From the NCBI GenBank assembly GCA_010405405.1, contig MU004231.1:2309860-2373859 (forward strand): 64,000 bases of DNA, read 5' to 3'. Below the pieces are notes generated by a model. The model was not told the origin of the DNA, searched no databases, and saw nothing but the letters and a program-made list of their open reading frames with translations. Source of the stretch: Microthyrium microscopicum (lineage: Eukaryota). The translations under genes and the position numbers were made by a program. This document shows positions 11,223 through 33,070 of the stretch, one piece after another (within the stretch, counting starts at the first letter, position 1; every line of letters starts with the position of its first letter).

Positions 11223-11516
11223 GGTGGGCGACGTTGATGGAGAGTGGTGCGCAAGGTGTCCGACAATAGATAATATAGAGGAATGAAGGAGAAGCAGACA
11301 GTTGGAGGTGGCAGCAGCCTGGAGAGAGATGGGAGGGAATGTTTTGGAGTTGTATGTCTGAGTTGCGCAGCTTGATGACCTCCCGGTTCCAGGTGAAGAC
11401 AGCACTGGCAGGAGCCATCCGTGACAAGGCAGGGGTCATACTTGTGGCCGTGCAGATATAAAAGTCCGTGCGTGTAGCGGCCCAAAATCCACGTGGCTCA
11501 AGTACCTTTGAAACAT

Positions 11517-14450
11517 CCCTTCGTATCTGATTTTCTAAGTAGATAGTGTATTAGCATGCGGAACCCTTACCCCTTTAGGCCTAATACTATGGGTTGTAAG
11601 AAAATTATAAACCTTAATATTTTGCTAATTAACTAAGCGTTCTTAATCCCTAAGGCGTTTCCTTTACTAAAAATAGAATTATTAGACGCGCGACTTTTAG
11701 TTTAGTTAGTATATAAATTATCTTAAGTTTTAGTATTAAATTAGCTATTTAGTACTTTAGTAACGAAACTTTAAGATTTTTTAGAGTCTACTACCTATTT
11801 ATAGCCCTCTCTTGTTCTATAATTAATTATTTTTTACCCTACTACTTCCTTACTACTATAAATAACCTATAATAAGATCTTAAGCTAGATTTGCCTCTAG
11901 ACCCTAAGGATAAGATTTAGAGAGTAGAATTAAATAGTCTTAATAAGTTAAATATAGAAAATATAGTTTTAGATAGTAAAGAAGAAGATTTAGATATAGA
12001 TACTAAGGAAGAAGATTTCTATATCTTGCTACTACTAGATAGTAGGTAAATACTTCTTAGAGGTAGAGAAGTAATTAACGTATAACTTAAAGGAACTAAA
12101 ACAACTATCTAGGAATATAATAGATTTAAATTTAAGCTAATACTACTACTAGATTATACTTAATTAACTATTTAACTTCCTATTAACTTCTATGACCCTA
12201 CTACCTCTTAATCTAAAGAACTTTGCGTTAAGATAGGTTCTAAAACTATTAATATTACGCTCTTAATTAAATATACTTCTCTTCTTAACGTTAATAATTT
12301 AATAACGCGCTTTAATATACCTTTATAATTCTTTAGCCTATTTATTTAGTAAGAAGACTATAAAGAGATTATTTTTAATACTATAGAATATATGCGTTAT
12401 TAGCTTAGTCTTTAGCTTAATAAAGCTATTCCTATACTAATTATATTAGGCAATATTAAGATATTCTTTAGAATCTATATTTATATAGGTGCCTACTTAA
12501 TTGCTAGAGCTTTAGATTTATAGAACTCTAATAGCGTAAATCTATATTATACTATATAGTATTTTATGCTATAATATAAGTTCTAATACGTTAAGAGGTA
12601 TCTCTACCTAAGCTATATTTAAATATAAGATACTAGAAAACTAGGAGAATTAGATCTTACTACTACTACTAGAAATCTATAGCGTAAATAGAAGTTAGTT
12701 TTTAATAAACTAGAACTACTAGCGTTGAATATCTCTTAGCGCTTTAAATTATATATTATCTCTTTAAGCTACCTTATAGTTAATAAGATAATAGTAAAAT
12801 TTATAGGTAGATTAGCTAATATACTCTACATTAAGGGTAAACTAATCCTAAAAGGGTATAAAATACTCGTATTATATAATTATAGGTATATTTATAACCT
12901 ATTATATACTACGTATATAGGAAGGCCTTAATTAATAAGTAAAAATATTAATATTCCTACCTATAGGCTATAATAGACTCTACCTATTAAAGGACCTAGT
13001 TTCTTTACTAAATTAACTACTATAGCGTGGGCTATAATTTAAATATATCTAACGCTATTTAATAATAAGAAATTTATTATTTATTATAATAACTTCTTTA
13101 GTTCTATATGCCTATTTAGCGCGCTTTATTTTTATAGAATTACTATAGTAGGTATAGCTTATTTAATATAATCTAAGTACCCTTAATAGTATAGATTACT
13201 TAATAAGAAGAAGAATTATTAGGAATAGGGTTATTAAGATAATTTAACTATTTAAGATATAGTTTCTACGGTATAGAGAAATTATATTCTTATAAGATTC
13301 CTAAGTACGTATTATAATATTTATAGTACTAAAACTGCTTAAAGAACTTGCCTTATTATTATAAAGAGTAGTATACGTTATAAGAGAGGTAAGATAGAAA
13401 GAATCTAGGGTAATGATCCTTAAAAAGAGCTTAAATAGCTTACTATTACTATAGATTATAACTCTTACATAAATAGTATTAATTTAGCTAACTAATAACG
13501 TTTTTATGTTATAGTATATTAAATAAGTAAGTTTTTATCTTTCTTTACCTAACTTTCTTATCTTAAGTCTATTTGTCCTAAAACTATAATTATTAAAAAG
13601 CTCTTATTATTCTAAACTAATATATATTTATTAAGCTATAAGAAATTAGTTTTTACTACTTTATTTTAATATTAATAGAGTTAGTATAAATACGTATACC
13701 TTAGCTCTAAAGATTAAGCTAATAATATAACCTAATTAGGTTATAAGATCTAGCTTCTACCTACTATAATATTTATTAAATTTAAGGTAATTTTAAACTA
13801 CTTTAGCTTAGAATTTAGTTATCTAAGGGTATTCTAATAATAATAGACCTCTACTAATAGCTAAATTTATTAATAATTATACCTAAAGTAAGGTAGATTA
13901 GATCTATAGTAATAAGATATATAAAAAGGTTACTATTTATACTCTGCTACCTATATCTTAACTCTTTATAAGTAAGCATAATTATATAAAGCTTCTTTAT
14001 AACGATAGAGGAATATGCTTCTACTATTAATAGTAAAAGGTATAGGATTAGCCTAATAAGCACGTTACTAAAACTAGTTTCTACTATTTAAAATATCTTA
14101 ACATTTATCCTCTTTATTTACTATATTAGAATATATTTCATAACTATAGTAAACATATATTTTATATATATTTTGAATAAGAACTAATAAAGATATCTTA
14201 TAGTATTTAAAGGGGATTATATAGATATTAGTAGAGAGGTTAAATAAGACTATAATAATACTAAAATTCTTATTCTAAAAGCTCTTTAGATGCTATAGTT
14301 AGCATAATTTGAGATAATTCCTAAGCCCCTATAGTAAATAGCCTCTTAGATATTCTCTACAAATATTATATACAAAGTAACCGCTTTAGTATTAGTCGCG
14401 CGGAATCCGTACGGTGGCGGCAAGCCCAAATGTCCATCAGATACGAAGGG
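11517..14450 (+). mobile_element. RIP-inactivated piggyBac-family DNA transposon (2934 bp)
   Basis: Perfect 15-bp TIRs CCCTTCGTATCTGAT (11517-11531 and 14436-14450). Extremely AT-rich, TpA-rich and CpA/TpG-poor. Plus-strand remnants VNKIIVKFIGR...KGKLILKGYK (~12780), YYNNFFSS (~13080) and DYNSYINSINLAN**R (~13455) revert by RIP transitions to the piggyBac motifs VDEMMVKF.GR...KPIPEGYK, Y.DNFFSS and DYN.HM.GVDLADQ.R. Confidence 0.92.
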
Positions 14451-17169: not shown

Positions 17170-17598
17170 CTATATCAAAACCCATTCATCCTCGTCCATG
17201 TTCTTGACCATGTCTTGTTCGCTATCATCGACGTCCATGTTTGCTTCGTCGGCAGAAACCTCGGTCCAAGAATTGTGCAATTCAATTTCATGCACCAAAT
17301 TTTGCTTCTGGGCTGCACTAGTGGAGCTTTTGCATCCAGCTAGAGGTGAGGCTGTTGGCGTAGGTGCCCATAGCTGAGCTGCCAGTATGACTTTTCCTCC
17401 GTACAAACGCGCATCGGGACATTGCTTCGCATGTTGCATGCAAGCTTGACCCATCGGCTCGTAGGTTATTTTGGTTCGCCGGGAGGAACATCCGACTGAT
17501 TGTTTGACGCCCACTGGTCTAACCTCTAGGCAATGTACAGTCGTGACTTCGCTAGTGCAACCGCAAGCCGTTAAGACCCGAATTGTGGTCAAACACAT
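17170..17598 (-). CDS. Small Cys-rich 'MC' family protein A
   Basis: MCLTTIRVLTACGCTSEVTTVHC...GC...AC...CP with an acidic tail; ATG at 17598. Confidence 0.7.
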   Translation of the reverse strand: MCLTTIRVLTACGCTSEVTTVHCLEVRPVGVKQSVGCSSRRTKITYEPMGQACMQHAKQCPDARLYGGKVILAAQLWAPTPTASPLAGCKSSTSAAQKQNLVHEIELHNSWTEVSADEANMDVDDSEQDMVKNMDEDEWVLI

Positions 17599-18686
17599 AG
17601 TGGGCTTTCGTGTGTGGAGTTTAGAGCAGCAGTTGAGCTCAGATGTTTTGGAGGTCTGGAAGATGAGGGTTTGGGCGTTTGGAAAAAGGTTGACTGAACG
17701 AGCTGGGAGTGCCAAAGACATAGAAGCTTGAGAGATCCATATCGCGCCTAAGTGACTGTAGCAGAGTGAAAGCATAAGTATTGAAGCAGAAAAGGTCGAC
17801 CTCCGCTTTTCAGGTGAAGTTTGAGCATTTGAGGTGAGCAGATGTTACTTGTTAGATGGACGCCTTACTATTCAATTTTTTGAACAGACCGAATGATATG
17901 TGGAATTCATGACTGGCCATTTTATCCAGAACTGATATTGCGCTGCATAGTTCATATCGAGGAAAAATATATACTTCATTCCCAAAGCGTCAGGTCAGAT
18001 AGGAATCTTGTGATGATAAGCACTCCCAAAGAAGGTTATTCGAATGTTATATATGTGAGCCTCTTATCGATGCGAAATGTCTAAGGATACCTACGTGAAA
18101 AATGTGCAATCTAGATGTTCCTGAATCTTGTGGAGCCAGGACGTCTGGATCTGACCAGTTCACTTCAAGCATGTTTTATATTGAGACCTTAGCTGCATCA
18201 TTGTCTTCGTAGATGTACCATATGCTTCTCATGACATCGGCAATTATCGCTTGATTGTTGCTAAGGTCTACTCTTGAAAGACATCGCGGCAAAGGGACGA
18301 GGAAATAACAATCATCGAGCAAAACCAATACGAGTGTTTCCGCTTTGTCTCTTTGTTCGTCACTTCGGAGCAAACTGATATGGCTGCAATCTGCCTCATG
18401 GCTGGATACTCGACTAGGATTGAAATATGTTCGCCCAAGCCGATGACAGGACGTCTGATGAGCAATTAAATACAGATTATGAAAAAAGGTTGGGGTTTGA
18501 AATGTAATATTCAAACCAAGAAGGTGATTGAACATCTCCCTAAGTGCTGGTGCTAAGTGGATTCACTTTTAACAACAAGATATTCAAATGAAGAGTGTGA
18601 AAAATTGATTGGAACTCTCGGGCAAGTCAGGAAGTTTGTATACGTCTACGTGTAATGAAGGCTCGAAAGACTTATTTCTTTGGGTG

Positions 18687-19103
18687 CTAAAGCTCCAGCT
18701 GTTGGATCTGATCGACCAGGTCTACTTCTTGGATGATTCCTTCGATACTGAAATGTTTTTCAGGTACATAATTCTCATAGAATTCATCGACTTCCTTGTC
18801 TGTCAGACCTTGAATCCCTAAAGCACGCACCTGGTCAGCAAGTTCGGATCTGGGATCTTTTGCGAGGCCTGGATCTACCTTATCATTGAGACCAAGTCCA
18901 GACATCTGGTCGGCTAACTTGGAGCCAGACTCATGTTTCCAACAAATTGTACCATCTGGCTGCACTTGAGCATCAAATGCCTCATCAGGGCACTCTTCGC
19001 CCAATTCCAGTAGCATGGCTTTGCGGATATCGCTGCACCAAGTTATGTCTTGGAGAGTATAGCAGCCGCAAGTGTCGTTGTATGTGAACCACTTGAGACA
19101 CAT
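18687..19103 (-). CDS. Small Cys-rich 'MC' family protein B
   Basis: MCLKWFTYNDTCGCYTLQDITWC...EECP...IC; internal duplication SKLADQMSGLGL / SELADQVRALGI. Confidence 0.75.
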   Translation of the reverse strand: MCLKWFTYNDTCGCYTLQDITWCSDIRKAMLLELGEECPDEAFDAQVQPDGTICWKHESGSKLADQMSGLGLNDKVDPGLAKDPRSELADQVRALGIQGLTDKEVDEFYENYVPEKHFSIEGIIQEVDLVDQIQQLEL

Positions 19104-19639
19104 GGTTGATTTGGTGCGGTGTTGAGACTGTCGAAGCTACTGTAATATTCGAATGGAGATAGAGCCGGATCGTGCAGTAGCGAAGGGCCAGGAAAGGTAA
19201 AAAGAAAGATTTGAGTCTAATTTGCTTCTTAGCAGATGGGAAAACACCGTATAAATGATAGCCTGTTTTCGATGTAAGTTCTTGCTGTTGAAGCAACAAT
19301 GAGATTGTAGATTAGAATTCTTTGTGCATGGCTGATCTTGTTCCATTATCAATAAAATCTTAGATTCGCATTGTATTTCTTTCAATAGGACTGTGTCTAA
19401 TATCAAGAACGCAGGAAACAACAACATAGACCATTAATGTTACAAGGAAAAAACAAGAAACGGGTATCAATTGTCAAAAAAGGTTTACTGGGAACGATTT
19501 TCATTCACGCATAGAATTAAATACGTCGATCCCCTATGGGGATTTTGATTATCCTCGCTTCCTCCTCACCGCAAGCTCAGGTTCACCCGAAATCCTATCT
19601 GGTTCCGGCTATTCGCTATGAGTGCTGGCTGGCAGCTTT

Positions 19640-19954
19640 TTAGATCGCATTGATATCGTCCTTTGGCATAGGGACAAGCTTGTCTTGATCAACACCATCC
19701 AACCAACCCCAGACTCGAGCATTTCGATCATTCTTGGCCTCAGCTACCCGCAGTGTCTCCACGCGCTCTGCCTCCTTGAGGCACCCATCGCACAATTCGT
19801 CTGGGTCATCAGAGTAGTTGATCGGGACGTAGCGAAAGTGAGGACACTTGTTCGTCTGCTTGCGTTTGACGAATATGTCTGCGTAGCAAGGTGTCTTGCT
19901 TCGGCTGACCTCACATTCACATCCACCATACTGATAAATGTAGATGATGCACAT
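19640..19954 (-). CDS. Small Cys-rich 'MC' family protein C
   Basis: MCIIYIYQYGGCECEVSRSKTPC...KCP...LCDGC. Confidence 0.75.
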   Translation of the reverse strand: MCIIYIYQYGGCECEVSRSKTPCYADIFVKRKQTNKCPHFRYVPINYSDDPDELCDGCLKEAERVETLRVAEAKNDRNARVWGWLDGVDQDKLVPMPKDDINAI

Positions 19955-20519
19955 GATGGAGGTGCTTTTTGTGCGCGGTTGTTTTTGTTGACGTGTGGGG
20001 CTTTTTGTTTGCTTTTCGAGAGTGTGCCTCTGGTTTGGAAATTGAATGTACTGGGAACTGGGAGCTTATGTATAGTCGCTTCGGGTGGTGACATCGTTCG
20101 AAGACTTTGAGTTCGTAGTGAATAAAAACATTGTACAAGTATATCGCCGTTGATAATTGAACGTGTAGACCGGTCCCTACGCTGAGCACTTTGATGGCTT
20201 TGGAATTGGTGACATAGAAGGGAAACAAATGCTTTGTCCTGTATTTCTGGTGGAAGTCGACAAAGGCATTTTGTTGAGACCGCGCAACTTGATTGAGACC
20301 ACGAAACTTCATGTAACATGACAAGTGAATGGGCAATTAAATGTATTAGAATGGACTAAAAGGAGAAGCACTAGCCAAAGAGACAAAGAGAACGAATGAA
20401 CGAGAATTAAATTGATTATGTGTATAATGTCATTCGACATCTTCCAACAGAATATGATGTCTTTGTGGTTGGAATGGGACTTTGAATCAGATCCCAGATC
20501 AAGTGCTTGCGAGTCGGGC

Positions 20520-21062
20520 TCAAGCATCCCAAAACCCTTCATCTGAGTAAGGTTCGGCTGGATTTTCTTCGTCAGGACGCTCTCTCTGCCATGAGTATTC
20601 GCGACGTTCCAAGTCTCTTGTCGACGTGTCGATGTTTCTCCAGAAGTTTGGAAGCAGGGGTTCTGGATACGGAATACCTCCTGTGTCTTCGAAACTATAT
20701 GACCTCCACTCCCATGGCACGTATCCCGGGATGGTGAAATTCAACGGCGTGTAAATAACAAGTCCGTCCTCCTCTGTTTCGAGACTTTCGGGAACGGGAG
20801 GTAGAGATAGAATCGCCACTAGGGCGCTCCAAGTGTGCTGCGCGACGGAAGCAGCTCTTGAGGTCAATCGTGGGTAGTGGCGGATGAACTTTTTGCAGTC
20901 GTAGCACAGCTTGCTTTTGGGAAGTCTGACTCGTGAAGTGATTTCATTTGGACACTATTCCATGAAACCTCTCCTAATCAGAAGCATGAGAGGGCAGGAC
21001 TGCGTCCCACGACTCTCTTCCTCTCCGCAGCCTCGGCAAAAATATACAACAGTATAGCACAT
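20520..21062 (-). pseudogene. 'MC' family protein D with one in-frame TAG at codon 36
   Basis: MCYTVVYFCRGCGEEESRGTQSC...FME*CPNE...LCYDCKK... continues in frame into the 20520-20867 ORF; TAG at 20955-20957. Confidence 0.75.
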
Positions 21063-29136: not shown

Positions 29137-29681
29137 GATGTGATAGCGCTTCAAAGGTTTGTTTGGTTTGTTTGGCTGATAAAGTAGAGTAGGTTGTGGT
29201 GCTAGTGGTTGGTGGTCTTTGTTTGATGCTCAACCAACTTTAGAGTTGATGTGACTGCTCGTTTTATTCTTCAAATCCAACACAATCTTGAAAGATGAAC
29301 GCTTACTTATATTTGTTTTAGAGGTCAAAGTCAAGTGTTGACGCATCGCTTTTCGTACGAAATATCCATTGGTAAATCCTACAGTCTACAGGTTGCGAGG
29401 CTATGCAGTCGGCGGTGACCCAAATTAGACTGCAGAGTCATCACTCAAATACTCTGCCACTATCAAAACCGAAAATAGTGAATCAAGAAGGGGCTTTCTG
29501 GAATCCAAACTTCATGACAATGCATTACGCCAGATTATATTCTGTCAAGTTGATATTGGGATGTAAGCCATTCTACTACATCTCCTACTACACAAAACTC
29601 CCCCATGTCATGTATTCACGGCACCCATTGGACTACAGAAAGACAAAACTTTGCCTAAAACTATCACCGCTGTTTGCCGAC

Positions 29682-30626
29682 CTACTCAGAGTGCTCTGAG
29701 ATTGGCAATACCGTTGGAGTGTCTGGTACCAATGATGCGGCTGCCACTGGAACCAAAACATAACACGGACCGTAAGGCCCAAGCCGAATGGAAACATTCA
29801 TATCCTTCTCCTTTACAAAACAGGCCAGCCTGGTATTATTTGGGAGTAACTGCATTCCCGTTAGTCAAATTTCATTTAAGACATTTCAGCATCAATCATG
29901 ACATTGTCCGACTCTGGCACAGAAGAAATAGGTAGGTACTTACTGGTAGCATGCCACGGATATCTGTAGTTTCCCTATCTCTTGGCCATATGATCAAAGA
30001 TTGTGATTCATGATCTCGGTGGCCTGAAATTATTCGGTGGCCTGAGCGTATTGGTTTGTAACGACATATTTTGTTCGGTACTCTAATGGCGATACAGGGC
30101 GTGAATGGCCCGCGAGCCCGCTTTGTGAAAGAACTTGGAGTACTGTCCCAGATACGCAAACCATCCCATGCCGTTTGAGCTGGGCCATAGACGAGGAATT
30201 CTGAGCAAATTTCTGGTGTAGCAAAGAGGGTTGGTGGAACTGGTTCGAATCTATGCTCGTAATTGATAGGTATTGGAGGGTCTGGTAGTTCTTCAGCAGG
30301 GCCGGGTTAACAACTACTGCTATCTTCAGATTCTCTATGAACATACCAGAGTTTTCTACGGCTTCATAGAACTCTTGAAACACGTCTGGGCGCAGTTGCA
30401 TAACTCCACCGGAAATCTGGTTCAGTTCAGTCTTGCACTGCGGCATATTACGATTGCGTGCGGTAGGTCTGGTGATCCTGTTCTCATGCAACTCAAGTAC
30501 TAAGTAATACGTCGGATTGGCAGGGCAGTGTATTTCATCCGCAATGTTTTCTTGACATCAGGTCAGCCTGTACAAATACGTTGGGCAGGAGCATAAAGCG
30601 AGTATGTATACGGCTGTGATACACAT
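29682..30626 (-). pseudogene. Three-exon 'MC' family protein E with one in-frame TGA at codon 23
   Basis: MCITAVYILALCSCPTYLYRLT*CQE...HCP...QCKTELNQISGGVMQLRPD. A phase-1 GTATGT intron starts at 30346, and a second GTAAGT...CTAAC...CAG intron lies near 29940-29850. The last exon reads ...SIRLGPYGPCYVLV...*. Confidence 0.65.
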
Positions 30627-31237
30627 TTTGACACGAGATGCGCTGATTCGATACTTGAGATCTTGTGGAAAGATCAGAAACTGCAATAATGATATGATAT
30701 AACTATAAATACCCGTATTTCAAGGCCTGAGATCGGATGCTCAGTTGAAAGAGTTGTGGTCATAGTGTTGAGGTGCTCTGATCATTGTGTTCTGGTGTTC
30801 AAATCATAGGTTGTAGAGTTCTGGCCACGATACTCCAGCCATGGTGTTCATGCTAGCTTGTTCTTTGTGGAGAGGCAGGCTCTGCCCGTGTCACGGTACA
30901 TTTCTTGGGGGCTTTCAGTGATATCAAACTCATCGTAGCTTCCATTGCCTTGAGTGGCTACCTATCTTACGAAGTATTTATGGTCCAGTGCTATGGCTCC
31001 CATCACATTTGATCGGAGAATCGTACACAGGTAGTAATAGAGTTCAGTGAGCTAGAGGATCAAATCCGCATATCTCTAACCAGATTTTGATGTATATCAA
31101 ATAGCTGGTTTTGCCATAGTAATCGATAGGCACTATCGCACTTCATGAGAGAATTGTGCTAATAGCAATGACCAAGCCAGACGATCCAAATTGCATCTTT
31201 CTGACCAAAATTTGTAGCACACTACTTATTCGCTTTT

Positions 31238-31785
31238 CCCATCGTATGCGGTGAGCGCCAGCGCACTCAATGGGTTGAATTGTAGTATCAGCAATGAGCA
31301 GGCCAGATAATCCATATTACATATTTCTGACTAGAATTCAAGGATAATAAATGTTCGTTTCTCCCATCTTATGCGGTGGGCCCATTGAAGTCGATGGGAG
31401 CATTGCATTGACTCCAGTGAGTAACCGGATGAATCCAAAAGTGCACATTTCCGACTAGAAAATAAAGCATAATTAAAGTTAGTTCTTCCCATCGTATACG
31501 GTGGGCGCCATCGCACTCGATGGGAACATCGTACTAATAACAGCGACTTCAGTGAGTAACCGGATGCATCCAAAATTGCACATTTTCGACTAGAATTTAA
31601 AGCATAATAAAAGTTAGTTCTTCTCATCGTATGCGGTGGGCACCATCGCACTCGATGGGAGCATTCTACTAATAGCAGTGAGTAAGCCGGATGCATCCAG
31701 AATTGGATATTTCGAACTAGAATTCAAAGCGTGGTAAATATCCGTTTCTCCCATCGTACTCGATGGGCGCCATCACACTCGATGG
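31238..31785. repeat. Tandem array of ~125-135 bp units, each with a ~37-nt hairpin of two CCATCG-N4-CG(A/G)TGG dyads
   Basis: Hairpins start at 31238, 31363, 31488, 31623 and 31750. The intervening sequence is also homologous (CAGTGAGTAA, GGATGCATCC, CTAGAA). Confidence 0.92.
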
Positions 31786-32016
31786 CTCCCATGGTAAAAC
31801 CGGTTTGGAATCTTATACTAACAAATTGGAAAGAGGCTGATCAGGCTGTTCTGTCATCATAACTTATCTGAAATGCAAGAGCCATCATGAACCAATTCTA
31901 TCTCATATAACTACAGAAAATTTACATATTGAGACAGGAAGTTGCTACTATAAAAGCGACTTTATGATCCATCCTACCACTCATGTCAACTCTAGCTAAT
32001 GACTTCTATCCCGCCG

Positions 32017-33070
32017 TTATATATTATTTTCAATCTCGTGGATTGCCACAAGTACATAATCGGCACCAGCAAGCCGTATAACTTCTTGTACCCCGAAAGG
32101 AAGCACATTGAACAATACATGGTTTCTCGGAATGCATTCTTGTCCTGGCGGAAGCGATAGTTGTCGAGTCCAAACCGTACTGTAGTGTTCTACAGCTCCC
32201 GATTCGTGATGTCGCACAACCTGTGCTGGAATACTGATATAAACAGCCCTGACCGTTGGAAGGGCATGATCAACGTGGTGAAAAGGTGCATGACCTAGTA
32301 TCTGTTAGTACAAATGTACGAAAGAGTGTTGTTTCTCAAAGCTGACACGTGCTGAAAGTCTCGTTTGGACTTCTCAGGACGAGTCATCAAGGTCTATGGA
32401 GGAAGAAATCAAGGCTTTCGGAATTTCTCTCGACATTCGATCACATCGTTTGAAGGCCATCGCATTCGATGGGAGACATCGAATGCGATGGGCGCCAGGA
32501 CGTGTTTAGCTGCATTTGGGGCTATCAAGAAATGTGGGCTGGCATGTGGATTTCTTACCATTGCGCACTGGTATAATCTGCGGTATCGTCGCGTATTGGA
32601 TGGTTGTTGCTTGTAGGCGATTCAGTACAGGCCAAGTCGCCATGATAATGGGCCGGGCAGAGTCGAATGTAAACGCATCCGGGGAAAAACTGGTATAGAC
32701 ACCGACGGTATTGAGCTGCGGTAGTCCTCGCTCTATGGAAAGTTAGATCGCTGAAAGGGGCCTTTCTTGTTCAGGACGTACCATGCCCATCCACGACCGT
32801 ATGGTAAGACTGGATGATATCAGGGCGCAGCATAGCAAGTCTGCCGTGTATTTGGTTTCTCTCCATTTCACAAGGTGGCCTATACATGGGATCTGTCTGG
32901 CTTCTATCCCCATGCATTTCCCATATCAGTCGGTAGGTTTGTCTTGTTGGACAGCGAGTGGATGGATAATTCTGTGTGGCATCTCCACAAGTGTTGTGAA
33001 GTGTCTCTTGAAAGGCGATTCGGGTCTCGCAGCCGCAAAAGGGAAACATGTATACCTTTATGACGCACAT
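32017..33070 (-). CDS. Three-exon 'MC' family protein F (246 aa predicted)
   Basis: Exons 33070-32782, 32732-32559 and 32294-32017 join in frame through GTACGT...CTAAC...TAG and GTAAGA...CTAAC...TAG introns. MCVIKVYMFPFCGC...TC...RCP...PCEMERNQIHGRLAMLRPD. Confidence 0.7.

Follow-up and report, generated by a model that had tools for sequence, protein, structure and literature searches.

The DNA analyzed here is a window of 64,000 nucleotides (nt) from Microthyrium microscopicum (assembly GCA_010405405.1, contig MU004231.1, positions 2,309,860 to 2,373,859 of the forward strand), and the question that it raises concerns positions 17170 to 21062, where four small frames, g1 to g4, each begin with Met-Cys. 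Do they belong to one family, what might their Cys residues bind, and how is the stop codon that interrupts g4 to be read? A sequence-only reading had proposed a fast-evolving intracellular zinc-binding family. We consider it probable that g1 to g4 form an old tandem array within a large ascomycete family of intracellular microproteins that have one N-terminal domain in common.

The four frames are co-oriented on the minus strand, with starts at 17598 (g1), 19103 (g2), 19954 (g3) and 21062 (g4). A scan for the strict pattern MC-x9-C-x10-C found these four and no others in the window, where shuffles predict 0.03 matches by chance (30 Markov shuffles), and thus bore out the grouping of four "MC" genes. 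g1 (17170..17598, 142 amino acids [aa]) has C2, C12-G-C14, C23, C37 and C53-x2-H56 (plus C60); g2 (18687..19103, 138 aa) has C2, C12-G-C14, C23, C38 and C54-x2-H57; and g3 (19640..19954, 104 aa) has C2, C12-E-C14, C23, C37 and C55-x2-C58. g4 (20520..21062) consists of 35 codons, an in-frame TAG and 144 open codons, or 180 aa if read through, with C2, C9-x2-C12 and C23 upstream of the TAG and C37 and C53-x2-C56 downstream. The Cys at residue 12 (as CGC, CGC, CEC and CxxC) and the Cys at 23 are therefore present in all four, as had been noticed, and so is a Cys at 37 or 38; the final pair, previously read as Cys throughout, is CxxH in g1 and g2 and CxxC in g3 and g4. The sequence-only reading had also treated g4 as intact and overlooked the TAG at codon 36. 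Its ligands do continue in frame, but because the TAG precedes the fourth Cys, that Cys, the CxxC and the tail exist only with stop read-through.

Beyond residue 60, acidic residues exceed basic ones in every tail, as described (D+E/K+R of 15/5, 17/7, 10/7 and 21/10 for g1 to g4), and over the first 60 residues pairwise identity is 20 to 30%. At the DNA level the frames are consistent with intronless genes, and the reported absence of a signal peptide agrees with low N-terminal hydropathy (best 10-residue mean, 0.3 to 1.4), the sole measure used. Codon use is clearly of the coding type in g2 and g3 (0.118 and 0.167 bits/codon versus an intergenic maximum of 0.023) and borderline in g1 and g4. 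An upstream in-frame ATG of g1, at 17775, has C at −3, and the ATG at 17598 has A at −3, as do the starts of all six window copies. Two of these six, with starts at 33070 and 30626, had been overlooked in the sequence-only reading. g1 to g3 are intact.

Family membership did not depend on the array itself. All four genes score on a hidden Markov model (HMM) made solely from 32 sequences of other organisms, with 0, 0, 0 and 1 of 500 shuffles reaching the scores of g1 to g4, and all six window copies match it, each score being reached by 0 or 1 of 500 shuffles. Across the genome (37.1 Mb, 58 contigs), pattern searches gave 43, 55 and 73 matches versus 13, 23 and 8 in controls, and a looser pattern gave 200 (100 of them listed) versus 79; the matches were fetched in part, so that all family counts are lower bounds. 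When ATG-TGY starts in the fetched loci were scored on a family HMM built without the window genes, 89 of 493 reached at least 8 bits, which no shuffle did, and 74 reached at least 12 bits. After removal of one internal start there are at least 73 distinct copies at the higher threshold (g1, at 11.6 bits, is hence excluded from this count), and 62 of the 73 fall in 14 clusters, the largest of 14 genes. A purine occupies −3 in 69 of 74 family starts versus 273 of 489 other ATG-TGY sites, and the 66 copies that reach 45 aa or more have a median length of 69 aa.

Beyond this genome, a profile search of 1.84 billion proteins returned 40 matches, of which 8 (six SRCR proteins and two other repeat proteins) were discarded as repeat-driven noise and 32 carry the full domain; the named ones come from Podospora comata and Apiosordaria backusii. 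Metagenomes gave 120 pattern loci, of which 66 carry 76 scoring starts (six loci have two or more, one of them through an internal start), and certain subfamilies are conserved across fungi. In the ESM Atlas, g3 found ascomycete clusters (best, 0.89), and query P0015 gave no usable named match. A direct homologue search with g3 returned no match; the part of g4 behind the stop gave 135 pattern matches in metagenomes, none of them a relative, and no g4 orthologue emerged; and a word-indexed profile search recovered two of its own input sequences and nothing else. The family is largely unannotated. Pfam-A held no family at E ≤1 for g1 to g3 and both parts of g4 and none at E ≤0.1 for any of 46 family domains, a library search that short divergent domains can escape. 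None of 13 tested family open reading frames occurred in a collection of 15 billion proteins, compared with 4 of 7 neighboring single-frame ones; this look-up required exact identity, which spliced or differently started models would escape. No description of the family surfaced in the openly accessible literature searched; members could be contained in paywalled articles or in supplementary material, for example tables of editing sites.

What holds these divergent proteins together is the pattern M-C-x8/9-C-x-(H/C)-xn-C-xn-C-xn-C-x2-(C/H). In 136 full-span domains, the six Cys columns contain Cys in 132 to 136, and position 14 contains His in 126 and Cys in 10, counts that are partly circular, as the seeds and patterns demanded these residues. 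The ligand positions exchange Cys and His in the manner of structural zinc domains: the ends of g1 and g2 are CxxH, and C9xxC12 replaces CxH in g4. Position 9 is Tyr in 93 of the 136. Met-Cys begins the domain in all 32 full-domain outside matches, at residue 1 in 29 of them. One subfamily of 131 to 157 aa (C17:64684-69348, locus L067) has C-x4-H as its final ligand pair, after a long insertion.

Two AlphaFold2 models of family members gave a common order of elements, strand-strand-helix-strand-helix, in the structure-prediction check that the sequence-only reading had suggested (predicted local distance difference test [pLDDT] scores of 75.7 and 74.7; predicted template modeling [pTM] scores of 0.48 and 0.44); in the g3 model (pLDDT of 75.7) the domain spans residues 1 to 61. 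Against the PDB, the best sequence match had an E value of 0.27 and no fold reached Z ≥3, a result that does not establish the fold as new or as different.

Cys or His occupies seven positions, with exchanges between the two residues, a pattern suggestive of two zinc sites. In the arrangement that we infer, Met would be removed and the domain would fold as a three-stranded sheet and two short helices around two zinc ions. Site A would consist of C12, H/C14 and the final CxxC or CxxH, and site B of C2, C23 and C37, completed by a putative fourth ligand, the free N-terminal amine of Cys2. An amine ligand of this kind would explain why the domain always stands at the protein start. A single metagenome locus holds two proteins (L153:3730 and L153:4383) with an internal second repeat in which CGC and CxxC are kept and the third and fourth Cys are missing, an absence that a need of site B for a free amine would predict.

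The same features bear on other uses of the Cys residues. Metallothionein-like stores of zinc or copper would account for small, Cys-rich proteins in many copies that have no catalytic residues, but this is distinctly unlikely, because the fixed seven-ligand spacing, the conserved aromatic residue (the Tyr at position 9), the predicted folded sheet and the long variable tails all fit a structural zinc domain better, and storage would presumably not require 70 or more diverged paralogues. Plant ERF-VII proteins have a Cys/N-degron, and the invariant Met-Cys at the very start of the family proteins would suit an N-degron or a lipidation site at Cys2 (for oxygen or NO sensing or for membrane anchoring) in place of a metal ligand. 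We regard this as quite improbable; it explains neither the other six ligands nor why the internal repeats have lost the third and fourth Cys. It is hardly credible that the proteins are secreted disulfide-bonded effectors, which would likewise be small and Cys-rich, or chance open frames: by hydropathy they have no hydrophobic leader, His replaces Cys and the ligand number is odd, while chance origin of the family frames is excluded by the shuffles, the outside HMM and the start-codon context.

Because the ligands alone are conserved, catalytic residues are absent, and some subfamilies are retained across fungi and others have multiplied locally, the two-zinc microproteins most likely serve as small zinc-stabilized modules that are expressed conditionally and bind and regulate other proteins, as adaptors or inhibitors; the variable surface and tail would direct each subfamily to different partners. 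Several observations weigh against this account of array, fold and function. The codon score of g1 (0.001 bits/codon) lies within the intergenic range (95th percentile, −0.053; maximum, 0.023), a value as low as that of an expressed neighbor gene. In a quick tree, 45 of 68 inner branches were left open and g1 to g4 did not resolve as one clade. The pairing of ligands into sites A and B is a proposed one, the pTM values of the models are just 0.44 to 0.48, and the binding-module role was arrived at by elimination.

Are these genes evolving fast, as the sequence-only reading had it? Divergent intracellular metal-binding proteins are supported by the outside HMM and the Cys/His swaps, but the conflict-type rapid turnover suggested for them was not borne out. 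Close paralogues are under purifying selection: in the ten closest pairs the synonymous rate (dS) is at least 0.7 (two saturated), and the ratio of the nonsynonymous rate to it (dN/dS, ~0.2 to 0.5) is biased downward because the pairs were selected by protein identity. There are no recent duplicates among the copies, and several are broken by a TAA (C9:272898), by several stops (C9:2033131 and C6:1864160) or by a TGA (g6). Low dN relative to dS and old duplications fit birth-and-death evolution and not a demonstrated arms race; arrays would expand by local duplication and shrink by birth-and-death decay. That genetic conflict (allorecognition, drive or defense) drives the array under positive selection is accordingly an unlikely reading. 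The long branches of g1 to g4 (2.5 to 5.8 versus a median of 1.38 in the same poorly resolved quick tree), the arrays and the pseudogenes speak for it, as does, in the accessible text of PMC12754623, the presence of antiviral zao genes among the editing-gated genes of other fungi. Against it stand the lack of recent duplicates, dN below dS in close pairs, the subfamilies conserved across fungi and the array neighbors, namely an AltA1-like gene, a short-chain dehydrogenase and RIO1. For a sexual-stage role, which had also been raised, the editing-like stop of g4 is the single pointer, an indirect hint.

That stop, the TAG at 20957-20955 on the minus strand, is codon 36 of g4 and lies just ahead of the fourth Cys. 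An assembly error is an improbable cause, because the TAG is unchanged both in a deep DNA run (X3) that may itself be the source and in a soil-metagenome contig of 259 nt (X7, depth 2) that shows no differences over 20731-20989; we rejected assembly error and chance for the TAG and the array on the grounds of these two records, the shuffles and the outside HMM. Repeat-induced point mutation (RIP) is disfavored as its origin: RIP indices give no signal at 20-21 kb, and none of the copies is nearly identical. The mRNA is predicted to form a hairpin at 20926..20981 (minus strand) of 21 to 22 pairs whose 6-nt loop contains the UAG; the A, at 20956, is third in the loop, preceded by U at −1 and followed by G at +1 and +3. 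The same loop was folded in windows of ±25 to 75 nt, with 21 to 22 pairs at ±30 to 75 and 15 pairs at 25; the z-score of the hairpin is −2.29 at 61 nt and −1.27 at 101 nt. In a background sample of 2,500 of 3,022 TAGs, 396 (16%) are placed in a hairpin loop by both window sizes, 107 (4.3%) have a loop of ≤8 and a stem of ≥10, and 23 (0.9%) have a stem of ≥18, 6 of these also in the favored context, although the loop and stem cut-offs were set after g4 had been seen and several stops were examined.

Fungal adenosine-to-inosine (A-to-I) editing favors a hairpin-loop A that has U at −1 and a purine at both +1 and +3, as far as the accessible text of PMC11156358 and PMC12754623 goes. One reading of g4, a real possibility if somewhat short of an even one, is that it is conditional, its UAG being edited to UIG and read as Trp, so that the full zinc domain would be produced solely at a particular stage or under a particular stress; an OLD-type deaminase or the Tad2/Tad3 complex would be a candidate enzyme. 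The loop position, the U at −1 and the G at +1 and +3 agree with the preferences given in the accessible part of PMC11156358, deep-stem loops of this kind are rare (0.9% of background TAGs), there is no RIP signature at g4, the genome has five OTT_1508-type deaminases, and the needed part of the domain follows the UAG in a frame that stays open for 144 more codons.

Comparable stops elsewhere in the genome add to this. The other single-lesion TAG copy, C9:341373 (L064:4374, plus strand), has all its remaining ligands downstream, and each of the four window sizes places its A in the loop of a hairpin, one that is itself unremarkable (z of 0.2 to 0.5); in a TAG copy with further stops (C16:235635), the A is paired and not in a loop. 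Stronger evidence for stop recoding than g4 itself comes from C2:1201236-1217483 (L237 and L238), where five diverged zinc-finger-like paralogues align at an in-frame TAG that lies within or at a hairpin loop and is followed by conserved coding sequence; three of the five have stems of 19 to 24 pairs at both sizes, and three further motif matches at 1.20-1.22 Mb that did not align were set aside. Because these five paralogues share the hairpin-loop TAG and conserved downstream sequence, the genome probably recodes some stops.

Several findings count against editing of g4. No edited read was seen, the RNA-type run (X6, which has spliced joints) having no contig over g1 to g3 or the g4 stop and hence no weight either way; the thresholds followed the sight of g4 and the inspection of several stops; and the hairpin z-score weakens in the 101-nt window. 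Trp is rare at the columns concerned (1 of 132 at the g4 position and 3 of 134 at that of the C9 copy). The stop is confined to single copies and is no conserved feature of the family, and a clean in-domain TAG occurs in 0 of 76 metagenome copies. Because the other premature stops in the family are TAA, TGA or multiple, ordinary decay does occur in it. The deaminase genes lie on C4, C7, C14 and C15 and the array on C2, no adjacent pair of OLD and ZAO genes was evident, and no C2H2 array or family copy lies within ~5 kb of the five. Finally, the host is probably a Dothideomycete, while genome-wide editing is reported, in the accessible text of PMC11156358, PMC13199489, PMC13431901 and PMC10776026, for Sordariomycetes and one Pezizomycete only.

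The chances are evenly poised that g4 is instead an ordinary recent pseudogene with one nonsense mutation and a hairpin that arose by chance. The other broken copies (C9:272898, C9:2033131, C6:1864160 and g6) favor decay, and so does the codon score behind the stop, which (0.035) does not exceed the score of the +1 frame (0.053); the rarity of the loop context (0.9 to 4% of TAGs), the identical allele in an independent soil contig and the 144 codons still open with all remaining ligands present do not. Passage of the stop by some other form of read-through appears improbable. Taken as a whole, the proposal that pan-ascomycete two-zinc microproteins of ~50 to 150 aa with a Cys2-amine ligand, present in about a hundred unannotated copies in some genomes, include g4 and C9:341373 as members whose domain is completed by hairpin-loop UAG-to-UIG editing is a tentative and rather doubtful one. 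If it were true, it would mean programmed A-to-I stop correction in a Dothideomycete, in trans and with no adjacent OLD gene. The single base at 20956 offers a cheap test of whether such correction occurs outside the fungal classes where it is reported.

Whatever becomes of g4, the family appears to be a small zinc-domain protein variant with no prior description within reach of the literature and libraries covered. Because a family of 73 or more copies has no Pfam model and is largely unannotated here, fungal proteomes may be short of a sizeable class of zinc microproteins. A family profile can be built now, and conserved single-copy members are knock-out targets in model fungi.

Of the two copies that had been overlooked, g5 (32771..33070, minus strand, first-exon region) is transcribed, its introns being seen in X6, and its spliced product is 246 aa. 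Its neighbor g6 (30030..30626, minus strand), likely a paralogue of g5 and probably decayed, has an in-frame TGA at codon 23 followed by 175 open codons. Plus-strand spliced RNA with three GT-AG introns at 29150-31100 runs antisense through g6 and has no ATG frame longer than 98 codons. Near these copies, 31063-31806 holds about six tandem copies of a 125- to 135-nt repeat with a GC-rich, near-palindromic core, and a short word at 32457-32507 recurs in many other contigs. The 119-codon frame at 18176-18535, which lies between g1 and g2 and was considered as an extra copy, was rejected, with a score below zero on the family HMM and an intergenic-like codon score.

On its other side, g1 is directly adjoined by a spliced AltA1-domain gene (16294 to ~16900, plus strand). 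The named best relatives of one neighbor gene are mainly from Dothideomycetes, with some from Mortierellaceae, and on this gene the host is likely a Dothideomycete. An AT-rich block at ~11500-14200 (22 to 25% GC, strong RIP-type dinucleotide indices) is probably a transposon relic. A lone X6 contig on g4 (20420-20925, depth 4, unspliced) stops at the base of the predicted hairpin and was given no weight. At C4:2247703 (L107), an OTT_1508-type deaminase adjoins a frame starting with a putatively MYND-like Cys pattern.

Among known systems, the top fold rows for both models were the C-terminal dimerization domain of Fur/PerR/Zur, with its structural Zn(Cys)4 site (PDB 9ire, 2fe3 and 2xig), in which a hairpin with a Cys knuckle, a helix, a strand and a CxxC follow in the same order as in the models. 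However, the Z scores are 2.1 to 2.9 (best, 2.9 for both models), with a root-mean-square deviation of 4.3 to 8.9 Å and 6 to 19% identity, well below the level of chance folds, and the Foldseek match is weak (E ≥1). Unlike Fur/PerR, the family also has three extra Cys and lacks the winged-helix DNA-binding domain: its domain occupies the very N terminus, from residue 1, and is followed by no Pfam domain. The resemblance is a topological hint, too weak to use. With the Pfam zinc families zf-BED, RING/IBR and metallothionein, neither the array nor the 46 family domains gave a profile match. Ecl1, Ecl2 and Ecl3 of fission yeast offer a functional analogy, with no relationship by the tests run: no Pfam match, Ecl1 included, was found for the array or the 46 domains, the Cys spacing of Ecl1 is presumably different, and fission yeast has three such genes where there are 73 or more here. 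Ecl1, Ecl2 and Ecl3 are described, in the accessible text of PMC10038150, as proteins of less than 100 aa with predicted zinc binding by Cys and as stress- and starvation-induced regulators.

For the g4 stop, the nearest counterparts are PUK1 and AMD1 of Fusarium graminearum and zao-1 and zao-2 of Neurospora crassa, which, as far as the accessible text of PMC11156358 and PMC12754623 shows, share with it an in-frame UAG, followed by open frame, that lies in a hairpin loop and has U at −1 with a purine at both +1 and +3. g4 differs in that its editing is conjectural, in its probably Dothideomycete host, in having no adjacent OLD gene and in that such stops are private to single copies. For site B, the accessible part of PMC12284835 describes the N-terminal CxxCGC site of Escherichia coli HypB, where metal is bound via the N-terminal amine and Cys2. 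HypB differs in its metal, nickel, and in being a disordered bacterial peptide with three close Cys, and it stands as a chemical precedent for the proposed amine ligand, not as a relative.

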